In this document: piece by piece, positions 1,075-33,563 of the stretch
Layout of the letters: the number at the start of each line of letters is the position of its first letter
How positions within the stretch are numbered: the first letter of the stretch is position 1
IMG/VR virus record: IMGVR_UViG_2541047945_000006
DNA from: a virus
Lineage: Duplodnaviria; Heunggongvirae; Uroviricota; Caudoviricetes
Direction: 5' to 3' (one strand)
Length of the DNA: 33,563 bases
Made by a program: the position numbers and the translations under genes
The notes under the pieces: model-generated
What the model was told of the DNA's origin: nothing
The model's input: only the letters and a program-made list of their open reading frames with translations
Database searches by the model: none

Positions 1075-1270
1075 TTCTGATCCTCTTCAAAAGGCTACCT
1101 GTTACTGGTCGATTTAAGTCAACCTTTACCGCTGATTCGTGGAAAAGATACTCTCTTCCATCCTTAACCGGAGGAGGGAATATCCTGCACTCGCGTACCC
1201 ATCGACGAACTGTTTCAAGGCTTCTTGGGCGCCGCTGGCGTGCGTTCCACTCCTGAAGTGTTAAGTACAT
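1052..1270 (-). CDS. xis: Excisionase
   Basis: 72-aa ORF overlapping the int start; near-identical to lambda Xis from memory (MYLTLQEWNARQRRPRSLETVRRWVRECRIFPPPVKDGREYLFHESAVKVDLNRP...). Confidence 0.9.
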   Translation of the reverse strand: MYLTLQEWNARQRRPRSLETVRRWVRECRIFPPPVKDGREYLFHESAVKVDLNRPVTGSLLKRIRNGKKAKS

Positions 1271-1292
1271 CGCAAAGTCTCCGCAATTACAC

Positions 1293-1320
1293 GCAAGAAA
1301 AAGCCGCCATCAGGCGGCTT
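1293..1320 (-). terminator. Putative intrinsic terminator (GCCGCC-TGAT-GGCGGC hairpin followed by TTTTTCTT on the minus strand)
   Basis: Hairpin and U-run read directly on the minus strand; it overlaps the stop codon of the small ORF 1310-1477. Confidence 0.45.
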
Positions 1321-1477
1321 GGTGTTCTTTCAGTTCTTCAATTCGAATATTGGTTACGTCTGCATGTGCTATCTGCGCCCATATCATCCAGTGGTCATAG
1401 CAGTCGTTGATGTTCTCGGCTTCGATAACTCTGTTGAATGGTTCTCCATTCCATTCACCTGTGACTCGGAAGTGCAT
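1310..1477 (-). CDS. Hypothetical small protein (55 aa)
   Basis: Manual ORF (MHFRVTGEWNGEPFNRVIEAENINDCYDHWMIWAQIAHADVTNIRIEELKEHQAA), below the track length cutoff; ATG preceded by GGAG at about 8 nt. Confidence 0.4.
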   Translation of the reverse strand: MHFRVTGEWNGEPFNRVIEAENINDCYDHWMIWAQIAHADVTNIRIEELKEHQAA

Positions 1478-5280: not shown

Positions 5281-5359
5281 GAATATCTCCTTCATTACCG
5301 ATTAATTCTTTCATCTGACGAATGAATTCTTCGTCTGACCAGTTATCTGCAAAACTCAT
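5189..5359 (-). CDS. Hypothetical small protein (56 aa) translationally coupled to cIII
   Basis: ATG at 5357-5359 overlaps the cIII stop (ATGA); overlaps ORF 5110-5280 in a different frame, so one of the two may be spurious. Confidence 0.4.
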   Translation of the reverse strand: MSFADNWSDEEFIRQMKELIGNEGDIHVTCNHSEGEQVTETHVHAAGVNVSPEGRS

Positions 5360-5526
5360 GGACGGCCTTGTTGTTTCAAAATATCCCAAAGCTTTTCGAG
5401 CAAGCTTTTCATTCTTGGTTGTTTAAAGTCTGCTCCGGTTAAAATATTTTTTCGTGAATGCTGCACCGATAAAATCGGGTTGAAAGGGCGAACCGATGCC
5501 GCCCCTGCAATAGCGAACTGTTGCAT
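5356..5526 (-). CDS. cIII: CIII-like regulator (FtsH inhibitor that stabilises CII)
   Basis: 56-aa ORF (MQQFAIAGAASVRP...SLLEKLWDILKQQGRP) resembling lambda CIII (MQYAIAG...LIDILNQPG); AAGGAG SD 8 nt upstream. Confidence 0.7.
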   Translation of the reverse strand: MQQFAIAGAASVRPFNPILSVQHSRKNILTGADFKQPRMKSLLEKLWDILKQQGRP

Positions 5527-5590
5527 AGGATGCTCCTTCTGTTTGATTGCATAACGAAAACGCCTCAAGTGAAGCGTTATTGGTATGAAT

Positions 5591-5616
5591 ATAAAAAAGC
5601 CCTCACATCGGAGGGC
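5591..5616 (-). terminator. Putative intrinsic terminator in the pL operon (GCCCTC-CGATGT-GAGGGC plus UUUUUU)
   Basis: Hairpin 5599-5616 followed on the minus strand by a U-run; located 65 nt upstream of cIII. Confidence 0.5.
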
Positions 5617-5732
5617 AAAGAAGATTTCCAATAATCAGAACAAGTCGGCTCCTGTTTAGTTACGAGCGACATTGCTCCGTGTATTCACTCGTTGGAATGA
5701 ATACACAGTGCAGTGTTTATTCTGTTGTTTAT

Positions 5733-5761
5733 GCTAAAAATAAAGGCCGACTATGCGGCCT
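5733..5761 (-). terminator. Putative intrinsic terminator overlapping the stop of the 207-aa gene
   Basis: AGGCCG-CATAGT-CGGCCT hairpin followed by UUUAUUUUU on the minus strand. Confidence 0.45.
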
Positions 5762-6374
5762 CGGAAGGAAGTCCAATCATCTTATTCAAATCTTCTACCC
5801 GTAAAGCAGGAAGTGCTGTACTTGCTTTATCTGCTTCTTTTGGTAGCAATTCTTTGCTTTCAGGCCAAACTTCAATAAGTCGCTTAACTGTTGTGACTGA
5901 GTTCAAAGCAGCCCATACATTTGATTCGATATCCTTTTTCTTGGCTTCAAGTTTTTGTTGCAATGCGCAGATTTCATCAAACCTTTTTGTTATTTCGTGC
6001 TCTGCGTCAAACATGCATTTATCTTTGGTCGGAGTAGGGAGCAATATATCTTCGCCGTTGCCGTCTTTCCCATATGAATGCCATCCAACCCTTCTGCCAG
6101 ATACAGTCAGATAAATTGAAGTAGAACGAACATCGTATGAGTAAAATGAACATCCCAGTTTTTCAAGTTCTTCACTTATAGCTACTAACTTGGAATATAA
6201 ATGATCCACTTCCTCAGTTTTCTTTTTACCGCCAAACGCAATAACTCTGGCGTCAAGTGCAAGCTGGTTCTTTAACTTTGTTACTTCTTCAAGTTCAGTG
6301 AAAACCCCAGACTTAATTAAAGCGTTACGAGCGATTTCCTCTTTCATTCTCGTAGTTAAGCGGATTGATGACAT
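5751..6374 (-). CDS. Hypothetical protein (207 aa) in the pL operon between N/sieB and cIII
   Basis: ATG at 6372-6374 with GAGAGGAA SD; charged, coiled-coil-like N-terminus; no family recognised. Confidence 0.65.
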   Translation of the reverse strand: MSSIRLTTRMKEEIARNALIKSGVFTELEEVTKLKNQLALDARVIAFGGKKKTEEVDHLYSKLVAISEELEKLGCSFYSYDVRSTSIYLTVSGRRVGWHSYGKDGNGEDILLPTPTKDKCMFDAEHEITKRFDEICALQQKLEAKKKDIESNVWAALNSVTTVKRLIEVWPESKELLPKEADKASTALPALRVEDLNKMIGLPSEAA

Positions 6375-6385
6375 ATTAATTCCTC

Positions 6386-6589
6386 TCAAATAAGTGGTTT
6401 GCTGCCTAATTTCATTTTCTGGCGACCAACACAAGTCACCCCCATTTCACTGCGTGGCTTGCGGTAGTAAAGATTGTGCCTGTCTTTTAACCACATCAGG
6501 CTCGGTGGTTCTCGTGTACCCCTACAGCGAGAAATCGGATAAACTCTATTCACCCCTACAGAGAGCAAAAGAGAAACGCCGATGAACAA
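6386..6589 (-). other. ORF whose C-terminus resembles the lambda N C-terminus (possible N gene remnant)
   Basis: 67-aa track ORF ending ...YYRKPRSEMGVTCVGRQKMKLGSKPLI, which resembles the lambda N end (...WYSKPGERGITCSGRQKIKGKSIPLI) as I recall it; it lacks an arginine-rich motif. Confidence 0.4.
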
Positions 6590-7163
6590 CTCATGGTGGC
6601 AGGAACTAATGCATTTTTTCCTGCAAGGAATGACACTTAAACAGTTGATTCATATGCTAATCATCCTGATCATATTGATTATTGTTATGCCGGTAAGCGT
6701 AAAAGAATGGATAAACCTGCATAATCCAGAAATCCTTCCTCATTACTGGATGTATTACATCCTGTTGTTTTGCGTTAGCTATGTGCTTAACGGCGTTGTT
6801 AATTCCGCTTATCACGCTGTGACTGAAAGAATTGAGGTATTCGCTGCTCAGAAGCGCAAATCTAAAGAAGAGAAATACGTGCAAGATTTGTTTGATTCGT
6901 TAACTCTTGGAGAAAGAGCGTATTTGGCACTCGCTGTAGTCGCTAATAACCAGCTACAAACGGAAAAGGGAAGCCCTGAAGCAATCTCATTGCTCGAAAA
7001 AGGGCTTCTTATTCGGATACCTTCTGCTACTGGATATCCTGAAATCGACCGTTTTGTTATCCCAGAACGCTATAGAAATGAGTGCTACATTAGGTTTGCT
7101 GGGAAGAAAGACAGTCTTATGGATGAACTTATCGCTCAGGATAAGCACGGCAAAAACAAGTAA
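6582..7163 (+). CDS. sieB: Superinfection exclusion protein B
   Basis: 193-aa protein closely matching lambda/P22 SieB from memory (MNNSWWQELM.FFLQGMTLKQLIHMLIILI...); hydrophobic N-terminal region; convergent with N. Confidence 0.82.
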   Translation: MNNSWWQELMHFFLQGMTLKQLIHMLIILIILIIVMPVSVKEWINLHNPEILPHYWMYYILLFCVSYVLNGVVNSAYHAVTERIEVFAAQKRKSKEEKYVQDLFDSLTLGERAYLALAVVANNQLQTEKGSPEAISLLEKGLLIRIPSATGYPEIDRFVIPERYRNECYIRFAGKKDSLMDELIAQDKHGKNK

Positions 7164-7179
7164 TTAGCAAATTAATTTA

Positions 7180-7452
7180 TCATCTTGCTGTCAGTTGTTT
7201 TGATTTCCGATAGCCTGCCGCGTAAAGAGCTACATTTGGAAGACAAGTTGAGCCTTCATATTTTCTGGTCAACGTTGTCAGTGTTATTACTTCTGCTCTC
7301 ATTGCTGGTTTGCGCTTGCATTGCAAGACCACTCGTGAAGGGGTTGGCCTGTGTAGCTTGTCGGAGCTGATCGCCTCCTGACTTTGCAGATTTGCACGAC
7401 GAGCTCTACGGCGAGAAGCTGCGGTGCCTTTAAATTCTGTTTTTCTGGACAT
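7180..7452 (-). CDS. N: N-type transcription antiterminator with arginine-rich motif
   Basis: 90-aa ORF from ATG 7450-7452 (GGGAGGAA SD); N-terminal arginine-rich motif KGTAASRRRARRANLQ resembles phi21/P22 N; sits immediately downstream of a boxA/boxB nutL site. Confidence 0.7.
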   Translation of the reverse strand: MSRKTEFKGTAASRRRARRANLQSQEAISSDKLHRPTPSRVVLQCKRKPAMRAEVITLTTLTRKYEGSTCLPNVALYAAGYRKSKQLTAR

Positions 7453-7550: not shown

Positions 7551-7596
7551 TGGCTTTTCAGCCACGTAGTCGAGTGTTCGACGTTGTTTAAAGAGC
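7551..7596 (-). promoter_or_regulatory. nutL: nutL-like site (boxA GCTCTTTAAACAA and boxB hairpin TGGC-TGAAAA-GCCA)
   Basis: Read on the minus strand between the pL candidate and N; boxA resembles the CGCTCTT(T)A consensus and boxB matches the nutR boxB loop at 10119-10132. Confidence 0.55.
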
Positions 7597-7642: not shown

Positions 7643-7690
7643 ACTTTATCGAAATGATAAATTAATGGCAATAGCAAAATGATAAATTGT
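7643..7690 (-). promoter_or_regulatory. OL operators and candidate pL (-35 TTGCCA, 17-bp spacer, -10 TAAAGT on minus)
   Basis: 17-bp palindrome TTTATCGAAATGATAAA at 7645-7661 and direct repeats AAATGATAAATT at 7652-7663 and 7677-7688; same GATAAA half-sites and -10 TAAAGT as in the OR region. Confidence 0.5.
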
Positions 7691-7904: not shown

Positions 7905-8951
7905 TCACTCTGGTTCGCTGGGGAATATATTTATCAATTGTCCTGTTGAAATGTGTCCATTTTCTACAACCTCTAGGTATGAAATTTCAACAGTTGATTC
8001 TTTGGCTACAGCATTCAAAAACTCAAGAAGCTCATCAGTAGATGTTATGTCGGCTGAGGTTTTTATGGTGAAAGATTCACCATTTGAAACCCTTGTGACG
8101 TCAATATTTATGTCCTGATTTGTTTCTCCCGAGCGACGAACGCCCGTGACATAAAAGTTATCTCTTCTAGTTTCCTTTTTTCGATCAATTGATTGCCTTT
8201 GGTTTAAGGTATTCAACTGTTCTCTATTTACCACTCTCTGACCAATTGTTACCTTCTCAACTGACGAGTCTTGAGCAAGCTTTTTAAGCAACTTGCTTTT
8301 ACCATCCTCGCCGTGAGCCAGAACCTCTCTGCTAATGTTTGTTTGACCGCTAATCAACAACTTGAGCACATTGTCTTGTGCTTCGTTTACCGCTTTGGTG
8401 CTTTTTTCCACCAATTGCACCTGAGAATCTTGGTCATGTCGCTGTGTTTCGTAGTACTCATTGATCCACTTATAGCCTACCGTGCTGGCAGCTAAGACGA
8501 TAGCGGCGACGGCGCATAGTGCTTGCCTTCCTGTCATTTTGCCTATCGCTTGAGTTAACACTGTCACCACTCCGTTTACAATCGGATCTGAGTCACCATC
8601 CGCTTGGCTTGAGCCTTCGCTTATTCGGTAGACAATATCCAGCAAACCTTTCTCTGCATCTTTTAGCTTCTGCCGATTATGAGTGCTGTGACTGACTACC
8701 GTAAATGCTTTTTGTATTTCATGCGTAAGCTCTGCCATACCAAAAAGCATTGACGCAGTCAATGAAGAATTATATCTATTTGGATCGCCTTTTACATTAA
8801 TATTGATCTTTGGCCATCCACTGAAAACTACGCTAGGGAATGTGAAGTCGCTTGAGTCGATATCCTTCCTTCCGAGCATTTCTGTTACAAAAGATACAAA
8901 GTCGTCTTCTGACTTGATAACATATTGCGCAGGTTGATCAATCGCTGACAT
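7905..8951 (-). CDS. Uncharacterised 348-aa protein with one predicted transmembrane helix (rex-slot cargo)
   Basis: ATG at 8949-8951 with AAGGA SD, 76 nt downstream of the cI stop on the same strand; hydrophobic segment LCAVAAIVLAASTVGY mid-protein; no Walker A or other motif I recognise; unlike RexA/RexB. Confidence 0.8.
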   Translation of the reverse strand: MSAIDQPAQYVIKSEDDFVSFVTEMLGRKDIDSSDFTFPSVVFSGWPKININVKGDPNRYNSSLTASMLFGMAELTHEIQKAFTVVSHSTHNRQKLKDAEKGLLDIVYRISEGSSQADGDSDPIVNGVVTVLTQAIGKMTGRQALCAVAAIVLAASTVGYKWINEYYETQRHDQDSQVQLVEKSTKAVNEAQDNVLKLLISGQTNISREVLAHGEDGKSKLLKKLAQDSSVEKVTIGQRVVNREQLNTLNQRQSIDRKKETRRDNFYVTGVRRSGETNQDINIDVTRVSNGESFTIKTSADITSTDELLEFLNAVAKESTVEISYLEVVENGHISTGQLINIFPSEPE

Positions 8952-10086: not shown

Positions 10087-10132
10087 CGCTCTTTGTAACA
10101 ACGGACATTCGTCCTACGTCGCTGAAAAGCGA
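10087..10132 (+). promoter_or_regulatory. nutR: nutR-like site (boxA CGCTCTTTGTAACAA, boxB TCGC-TGAAAA-GCGA)
   Basis: boxA-like sequence followed about 17 nt later by a boxB-like hairpin, just downstream of cro. Confidence 0.55.
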
Positions 10133-17087: not shown

Positions 17088-17162
17088 GGGTCAGTCGTAT
17101 AAAGGTCATTACGGAAGGCTGTTAACCTTCTTATCGTGGTTCGAGTCCACGCTGTCCCGCCA
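17088..17162 (+). tRNA. tRNA-like gene, predicted anticodon GUU (Asn)
   Basis: Manual cloverleaf: acceptor GGGTCAG/CTGTCCC (one mismatch), U8, D-loop with GG, perfect 5-bp anticodon stem with loop CTGTTAA, T-arm CGTGG-TTCGAGT-CCACG, encoded GCCA 3' end. Confidence 0.5.
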
Positions 17163-17167
17163 AACAT

Positions 17168-17243
17168 GCTGGTTTAGCTCCAATGGTAGAGCGGTCGCCT
17201 TGTAAGCGAATGGGTAGCGGTTCAAGTCCGTTAACCAGCACCA
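17168..17243 (+). tRNA. tRNA-like gene, predicted anticodon UGU (Thr)
   Basis: Manual cloverleaf: perfect acceptor GCTGGTT/AACCAGC, D-arm GCTC/GAGC, anticodon loop CTTGTAA, T-loop TTCAAGT, encoded ACCA 3' end. Confidence 0.6.
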
Positions 17244-33329: not shown

Positions 33330-33563
33330 TGAACCGCCCCGGGTTTCCTGGAGAGTATTTTATCTGTGAACTCAGGCTGCCAGATCATCGTTTCCGATGG
33401 AAGCATAATAAGCTTTTTCTGCTTCTGCCGGAGGAGTATGGCCCAGCCTTTCCAGCAATCGTCGATTGTTATACCAGTCCACCCACGTGAGTGTGGCCAG
33501 TTCCACTTCTGCACGGTTTTTCCAGCTCTTACGGTGTATTACCTCCGCTTTGTAAAGACCATT
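33330..33563 (-). mobile_element. Second IS629-like copy, same orientation as the first, cut by the window edge
   Basis: Sequence 33330-33563 matches 17568-17801 along its whole length by eye, starting with the same terminal repeat TGAACCGCCCCGGGTTTCCTGGAGA. Confidence 0.85.
33372..33563 (-). CDS. IS3-family transposase OrfB, 3' portion only (partial at window edge)
   Basis: Placed by offset identity with orfB of the first IS copy (17610-18500). Confidence 0.7.
   Translation of the reverse strand, partial: NGLYKAEVIHRKSWKNRAEVELATLTWVDWYNNRRLLERLGHTPPAEAEKAYYASIGNDDLAA

Follow-up and report, generated by a model that had tools for sequence, protein, structure and literature searches.

Terminator motifs upstream of cIII in a lambdoid prophage: a very probable copy of the λ tL2/PreS cassette

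The stretch of DNA analysed here (the window, 33,563 nt, IMG/VR record IMGVR_UViG_2541047945_000006) represents the early region of an E. coli phage or prophage of the lambdoid type. We conclude that its minus strand at 5549-5762 very probably constitutes a lambdoid prophage copy of the λ tL2/PreS cassette, lying in the pL operon and working by the mechanism proposed below. A first-pass annotation of this DNA had reported two intrinsic terminators, at 5591-5616 and 5733-5761, within the leftward early operon and upstream of cIII. Both hairpin-plus-U-run sites were found on the minus strand with coordinates right to within 1 nt, and gene order and the position of nutL agree with the location proposed for them. 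The count of two did not hold, as a third motif (5578..5551) had been missed. The description of the sites as operon terminators stands insofar as both are intrinsic-terminator motifs; it is incomplete in that the one at 5591-5616 also ends a small RNA (sRNA) gene, PreS, by homology to λ. The roughly 140 nt between the two sites are no mere spacer but make up a functional RNA module (PreS).

The early left operon and its terminator motifs

The following genes and sites define the setting of the motifs.

7643..7671, minus strand: pL-like promoter (TTGCCA, 17 nt, TAAAGT), at a position that fits the annotated pL of HK542
7551..7596, minus strand: nutL, with boxA GCTCTTTAAACAA at 7596..7584 and boxB TGGCTGAAAAGCCA at 7564..7551
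7180..7452, minus strand: antiterminator N, 90 aa (PF25694 N_peptide, E 3.4e-32, full length covered)
6582-7163, strand opposite to the pL operon: SieB gene (PF14163)
5751..6374, minus strand: 207-aa gene of the Nmad5 family (PF18757, E 1.5e-71)
5356..5526, minus strand: cIII-like gene, 56 aa, whose HK542 homolog is annotated CIII
beyond cIII, in minus-strand order: two small ORFs, erf (PF04404) and an SSB-like gene
10087..10132, plus strand: nutR, downstream of cro, with boxA CGCTCTTTGTAACAA, a small hairpin and boxB TCGCTGAAAAGCGA at 10119-10132

An N protein is encoded in the window and both early transcripts carry a boxA and a boxB, the elements of an N/nut system. In nutL, a small hairpin (7582..7569) is followed by UACG and then by boxB, UGGCU-GAAA-AGCCA. 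The boxB of nutR, UCGCU-GAAA-AGCGA, differs from it in the stem, where C-G replaces G-C in a compensatory exchange, the GAAA loop being common to both; this loop is a true tetraloop at both nut sites, in contrast to the pentaloop found in λ. The extra hairpin between boxA and boxB reads GUCGA-ACAC-UCGAC in nutL and GGAC-AUUC-GUCC in nutR. The earlier suggestion that cIII, erf and ssb would be reached by N-dependent read-through, as in λ, is a reasonable one by homology. The cIII-like gene is preceded by a GGAG Shine-Dalgarno sequence 7 nt upstream and gave no Pfam match; a 225-nt gap separates it from the Nmad5 gene. The three motifs identified by a consensus scan lie in and around this gap.

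5733..5762, minus strand: T1, with its stem at 5762..5743, GAGGCCGCATAGTCGGCCTT, and its U-run at 5742..5734, TATTTTTAG
5591..5616, minus strand: T2, with its stem at 5616..5599, GCCCTCCGATGTGAGGGC, followed by TTTTTT at 5598..5593
5549..5578, minus strand: T3, with its stem at 5578..5559, AACGCTTCACTTGAGGCGTT, followed by TTCGTTAT

The stem of T1 has 7 bp, 5 of them G-C, and is followed by UUUAUUUUU; its folding energy of -11.0 kcal/mol (z -2.8) was equalled by 2 of 200 dinucleotide shuffles. T2 combines a G+C-rich stem of 6 bp with U6 and folds at -11.1 kcal/mol (z -3.4), a value equalled by none of 200 dinucleotide shuffles. T3 has an 8-bp stem, the tail UUUUCGUUAU and a folding energy of -9.9 kcal/mol (z -3.0 against dinucleotide shuffles). 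The cIII ATG (5526) is downstream of all three motifs, 25 nt from T3. T1 reaches into the 3' end of the 207-aa gene: it takes in the last codons, and the TAG stop of that gene (5753..5751) falls within the loop of the hairpin. The 12 kb scanned contained 24 terminator-like motifs, against 11.5 +/- 3.2 in shuffled sequence. For three motifs on one strand within 214 nt, the expected number is about 0.1 (Poisson P ~1.5e-4, by our own arithmetic), and all three motifs are conserved across phages. Clustering above expectation together with this conservation confirms the hairpin-terminator motifs as real. The same consensus scan detected no further terminator motif on the minus strand between N and T1; T1, T2 and T3 are therefore the first intrinsic stops after N, and T1 is probably the first intrinsic terminator that a polymerase would encounter beyond this gene.

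Three other features of the window deserve mention. A 348-aa ORF on the minus strand (7905-8951) occupies the place of rex, with pL on one side and the cI-like repressor on the other, and has no Pfam match. Two adjacent tRNA genes on the plus strand at 17088-17240 (Rfam tRNA, 55 and 61 bits) recall the late-region tRNA clusters of Stx-type lambdoid phages. Finally, the minus strand at 18426-18542 matches the Rfam ALIL pseudoknot over its full length (120 bits); this is the frameshift element of IS3-family transposases and therefore points to an insertion sequence within the phage DNA.

Homology to the λ tL2 sites and to PreS

A BLAST search with positions 5526-5775 matched 372 phage records, λ included, mostly at 95-99% identity. 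The closest sequenced relatives are the HK542 and PhiR12 phages, which are about 98% identical here and share the gene order. Relative to λ, the segment 5550-5754 is about 96% identical to the ral-ea10 and ea10-cIII intergenic segments taken together. T2 aligns with λ 33950..33925 and has a stem identical to that of λ; T3 aligns with λ 33512..33483, with an identical stem and one loop change. The λ terminators tL2a and tL2b are said to have been placed at ~33,930 and ~33,494, respectively, by Luk and Szybalski in 1983 and in the sequence appendix of Lambda II, positions that agree with those of T2 and T3. From its sequence, T2 is identified as λ tL2a; T3 is what we take to be λ tL2b. For both motifs we find homology, a hairpin followed directly by a U-run, and a position in the pL operon. 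This position is that of the λ tL2 cluster, between the N-proximal accessory genes and cIII and under N/nut control.

Annotations in other phage records agree with these assignments. In the Sf6 record (AF547987), the T2 homolog is labelled "terminator; homology to phage lambda; tL2A" and lies within "bsq4; boundary sequence", the equivalent conserved block between variable gene modules. Equivalents of both T1 and T2 are annotated as rho-independent terminators in mEp234, and the T2 equivalent is annotated as a terminator in HK97, 434 and ES18. Of 5,426 complete E. coli genomes, 2,236 (~41%) carry the block as well, in up to six copies.

The differences from λ are few. In λ, ea10 is inserted between the equivalents of T2 and T3, whereas here 20 nt separate the two motifs, an arrangement also found in HK97 and HK542. 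The U-tract of T2 directly abuts the stem, where λ tL2a has a GA spacer, so that the form in the window is the more canonical terminator. T1 is a good 7-bp hairpin here, whereas its λ counterpart at the end of ral is bulged and weak (-4.3 kcal/mol).

In λ, tL2a has historically been regarded as one termination site of the early left operon (10.1101/2024.10.31.621285). Recently, RIL-seq of λ-infected E. coli led to the description of an Hfq-dependent sRNA, LPR1, renamed PreS, which is made between ral and ea10 and whose 3' end is tL2a (Silverman et al., bioRxiv 10.1101/2024.10.31.621285). According to the same preprint, PreS is expressed in the lytic cycle only and appears on northern blots as RNAs of ~88 and ~68 nt; it opens the dnaN ribosome-binding site, thereby increasing translation, and represses alaS, both effects being documented with compensatory mutants. 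When the seed or the whole PreS gene is deleted, less λ DNA is replicated and fewer phages are produced spontaneously, effects that depend on Hfq (10.1101/2024.10.31.621285). The 5' end of λ PreS derives from cloning primers and northern sizes: the preprint's cloning and T7 primers (P810, P1103, P1107) place +1 at GAGCAAUGUCGCUCG. The seed is likewise defined by primers, those for an 18-nt deletion and for the mutants M1 (CUG to GAC) and M2 (GAA to CUU). Projected onto the window, these definitions give two features.

5593..5677, minus strand: PreS homolog, 85 nt, with the 5' end GAGCAAUGUCGCUCG, aligning to λ PreS at 34011..33924
5616..5642, minus strand: PreS seed, UGUUCUGAUUAUUGGAAAUCUUCUUUG, identical to that of λ, the M1 CUG and M2 GAA included

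The PreS of the window differs from the 88-nt RNA of λ by two substitutions in the terminator loop and by deletion of the 2-nt GA before the U-tract, 84 of 88 positions being alike; the 5' end, body, seed and terminator stem are shared. The gene upstream is Nmad5 here and ral in λ, and ea10 lies downstream in λ only. By analogy with λ, T2 is thus read as both the terminator and the Hfq-binding tail of the PreS sRNA gene, and it supplies the terminator hairpin (6-bp stem) and U6 tail expected of the PreS Hfq-binding module.

The predicted target, the host's replication-clamp gene dnaN, is also retained. Full-length RNAduplex comparison of PreS with the dnaN leader was uninformative, shuffled sRNAs reaching -56 kcal/mol, and a seed-restricted duplex was computed instead. 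In silico, the seed pairs with the dnaA-dnaN junction of E. coli K-12 at -48..-11 with an energy of -31.9 kcal/mol, as for λ PreS, and the predicted duplex includes two stretches, 12 and 11 nt long, that pair perfectly. Read as its reverse complement, the seed resembles the last dnaA codons (CAAAGAAGATTT..TAATCAGAACA), likewise in perfect blocks of 12 and 11 nt; to judge from this resemblance, PreS looks as if it had arisen from an antisense copy of the dnaA-dnaN junction. Annotation resources are silent on this sRNA: PreS is absent from Rfam 15 and from RefSeq annotation, and a search of 5300-6000 against Rfam at gathering and permissive thresholds returned no family at threshold (best E-values >=0.6). 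Because Rfam has no family for PreS, no independent model confirms the homolog.

DicF, from the Qin prophage, offers a parallel. It is an Hfq sRNA embedded in an operon, defined by its 3' end and processed from a longer transcript, and it represses ftsZ. Like PreS, it comes from a prophage operon and ends at a rho-independent 3' end, and the 5' end of PreS would probably also be generated by processing. The two RNAs have no sequence relationship, and they differ in effect, PreS activating dnaN and DicF repressing ftsZ.

Conserved structure and variation of the cassette

A second structured element lies directly 5' of PreS.

5674..5711, minus strand: 14-bp hairpin with two outer G-C pairs, overlapping PreS +1..+4

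This hairpin folds at -22.6 kcal/mol (z -6.9), and its outer G-C pairs take in PreS +3 and +4. At least five unrelated stem sequences occupy the same position with the same shape among related phages (loci L006, L007, L060 and L109 among them). In a covariance-model alignment of 54 sites, both partners have changed in 9 of the 16 pairs, and pairing holds in 97% of cells; the alignment was fitted to the model, and the 54 sites represent some 4-5 lineages rather than as many independent events. Pair counts were taken from this alignment, as MAFFT set the variant 5' hairpins one column out of register. For the structure as a whole, 96.4% of cells are paired, against 31-50% in slid controls, with two-sided changes at 15 pairs.

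A promoter of PreS's own was sought by consensus scan of the minus strand at 5680-5760, which gave no promoter-like site, and the sequence just upstream of PreS +1, where a -10 element would lie, shows no conservation from one variant to the next. We therefore infer that PreS is cut from the pL transcript at the base of the hairpin, which makes the 5711..5674 structure a candidate processing signal or 5'-end determinant. The PreS preprint contains no discussion of a 5' hairpin, of RNase III or RNase E, or of a P22-type variant (10.1101/2024.10.31.621285).

The spacer between T1 and the hairpin (5713-5732, minus strand) consists of CA-rich, A-R-N-like triplets (AAC AAC AGA AUA AAC), to which the distal face of Hfq could bind; bsq4-type contexts conserve this spacer, and HK97-type contexts have another sequence in its place. 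The idea that the CA-rich stretch after T1 is an AgvB-like anti-GcvB mimic was dropped, since sRNAs of that type are assigned to the PR' moron region, outside the pL operon (Tree et al. 2014). The Pas sRNA preprint makes no mention of the PreS/tL2 locus.

PreS itself is highly conserved. More than 120 IMG/VR contigs contain an invariant core, GAGCAATNTCGCTCGTAACNAAAC. Among 139 sites, which reduce to 51 distinct PreS bodies, nt 1-62 are almost invariant, and variation gathers at two places, the T2 loop and the 0-2 nt that separate stem and U-tract. While the stem is fixed, this spacer, whose site falls at 5593-5602 on the minus strand of the window, is absent or reads C, A, GA, AA, AG or GU in different copies; such variation may tune termination against read-through. 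Some of the contigs holding the core are ~48.4-48.5 kb long (L015, L020, L031) or short (L012-L014, L019, L027, L028), are mostly of low coverage, and belong to assemblies of Shewanella, Pseudomonas, Pseudoxanthomonas, Bradyrhizobium, Arthrobacter and Kitasatospora. These occurrences in unrelated taxa almost certainly represent contamination with λ control DNA.

A diverged form of the sRNA, 103 nt long and about 71% identical, is present in P22-like phages of Salmonella.

ES18 (L006), 1259-1399, minus strand: Salmonella PreS variant
g341c (L007), 1265-1405, minus strand: Salmonella PreS variant
SEN22 (L008), 1265-1407, minus strand: Salmonella PreS variant

The variant falls below the 92% identity cut-off of the survey in the preprint (10.1101/2024.10.31.621285). 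It keeps the seed core GUUCUGGUUAA, the seed-target match having been checked against E. coli dnaN only. Hairpin 2 is preserved through a double change from A-U to G-C, and the terminator stem is replaced outright, by GCCGCUC/GGGCGGC followed by a U-run. Mixed pairings of 5' hairpin type and PreS body type also occur (L045, L063, L085, L089, L113), such as an E. coli-type hairpin with a Salmonella-type body, and therefore indicate recombination inside the cassette, at a GAGCAAT junction.

The flanking motifs vary more. T3 was found in 90 of 109 related contexts, adjoining T2 in 38 and lying 400-600 nt away in 47, and eight loci have a compensatory C-G to U-A version of it. About 44 of 138 related contexts contain a good T1 hairpin followed by UUUAUUUUU; none of the HK97-type phages does. 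T1 thus appears to be optional; it is the least conserved of the three motifs and the least secure as a functional terminator, and may be weak or incidental.

Alternative readings and proposed mechanism

The simplest alternative is that T1 and T2 are plain attenuators, making cIII, erf and ssb conditional on N, with a functionless sequence between them. Much of what was described above is compatible with it: both motifs are canonical hairpin-plus-U structures on the transcribed strand, N, nutL and nutR are present, and tL2a has long counted among the sites at which early left transcription ends. However, the 51 distinct copies hardly differ in the 60 nt that precede T2, while the terminator loop is free to change, a pattern unlike that of a spacer. 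Moreover, λ PreS accumulates, binds Hfq and, as compensatory mutations show, regulates dnaN and alaS, and the seed in the window is identical to its seed. We consider this alternative improbable.

Still less probable is that the block has been kept only as a recombination "boundary sequence" linking exchangeable modules, the hairpins being incidental. The Sf6 label suggests such a role, and the flanks do vary, with ral, Nmad5, a Nun-like gene or orf20 preceding the block and ea10, gene 33 or cIII following it; the independent assortment of 5' hairpin and PreS body types points the same way. Yet the boundary-sequence concept is one of DNA recombination, whereas the evidence here and in λ is of a functional RNA cassette. 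Stems are maintained through compensatory changes and by wholly different sequences put in their place, which argues that RNA structure, not DNA identity, is selected, and the function of PreS in λ is experimental. A linker role can coexist with an RNA function, but leaves the covariation unexplained.

That the region encodes a small protein is hardly credible: an ATG-initiated ORF of 31 aa (5672..5577) does span PreS, and a "hypothetical protein orf19" is annotated over the equivalent sequence in VT2-Sakai, but ATA replaces the ATG in the Salmonella variant as well as in some copies of the E. coli type, the insertions in the Salmonella variant total 17 nt, which is not a multiple of three, a GGAG lies just 2-3 nt from the ATG, the ORF crosses the terminator hairpin, and the variation has no codon-like pattern. 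The VT2-Sakai orf19 (L010 1708-1863), which covers PreS, is probably a spurious gene call.

Under the reading that we favor, a copy of the λ tL2/PreS cassette, the elements would follow one another in the direction of transcription as T1 (optional, at the end of the upstream gene), the 5' hairpin, the 85-nt PreS ending at T2, T3, and cIII. Upon loss of the repressor, pL transcripts would cross nutL and N would be made. Polymerases lacking N modification would stop at T1, T2 or T3, while N-modified polymerases would continue to cIII, erf and ssb. Transcripts ended at T2 would be cut back to the base of the upstream hairpin, or close to it, to yield PreS, which would bind Hfq via its hairpin and U-tail. 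The single-stranded seed could then pair with the dnaA-dnaN junction of the host, opening the dnaN ribosome-binding site and favoring phage DNA replication; PreS would also repress alaS. Motifs, λ homology, seed identity, dnaN complementarity and the presence of N, nutL and nutR were computed in this study; that tL2a terminates transcription and that PreS binds Hfq, activates dnaN and is expressed in the lytic cycle only is carried over from experiments with λ. For the phage in the window, N dependence, a processing role of the hairpin and the action of T1 as a real terminator are what we infer. An N-modified polymerase should ignore T2 as well, and one might speculate that T2-ended PreS comes from unmodified early transcripts or from incomplete antitermination.

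The tL2a/tL2b terminator pair and the PreS sRNA gene are already known biology. Three observations may be new, namely the structure-conserved hairpin at the PreS 5' end, the diverged 103-nt Salmonella variant and the optional T1. It is tempting to go further and to view the cassette as an N-gated sRNA generator with biogenesis signals that have yet to be described, including hairpin-directed processing and tuning by T1 and the spacer, in a family reaching as far as the Salmonella form. We advance this view tentatively and would not put its chances as high as even. If the cassette were such a generator, the 5' hairpin would release PreS from the pL transcript, for example through RNase III or RNase E, and the optional T1 and the variable spacer would set the amount of PreS relative to cIII and the recombination genes.

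The main outcome is a correction of annotation: the "two terminators" are known λ tL2 sites, one of which marks an unannotated sRNA gene, PreS. Recognition of PreS explains why an intergenic block is ~96% identical across lambdoid phages that are otherwise mosaic. Handles on how a terminator-ended sRNA is produced within an antiterminated operon are provided by the conserved hairpin 5' of PreS, by the variation in T1 and in the spacer, and by the Salmonella form.
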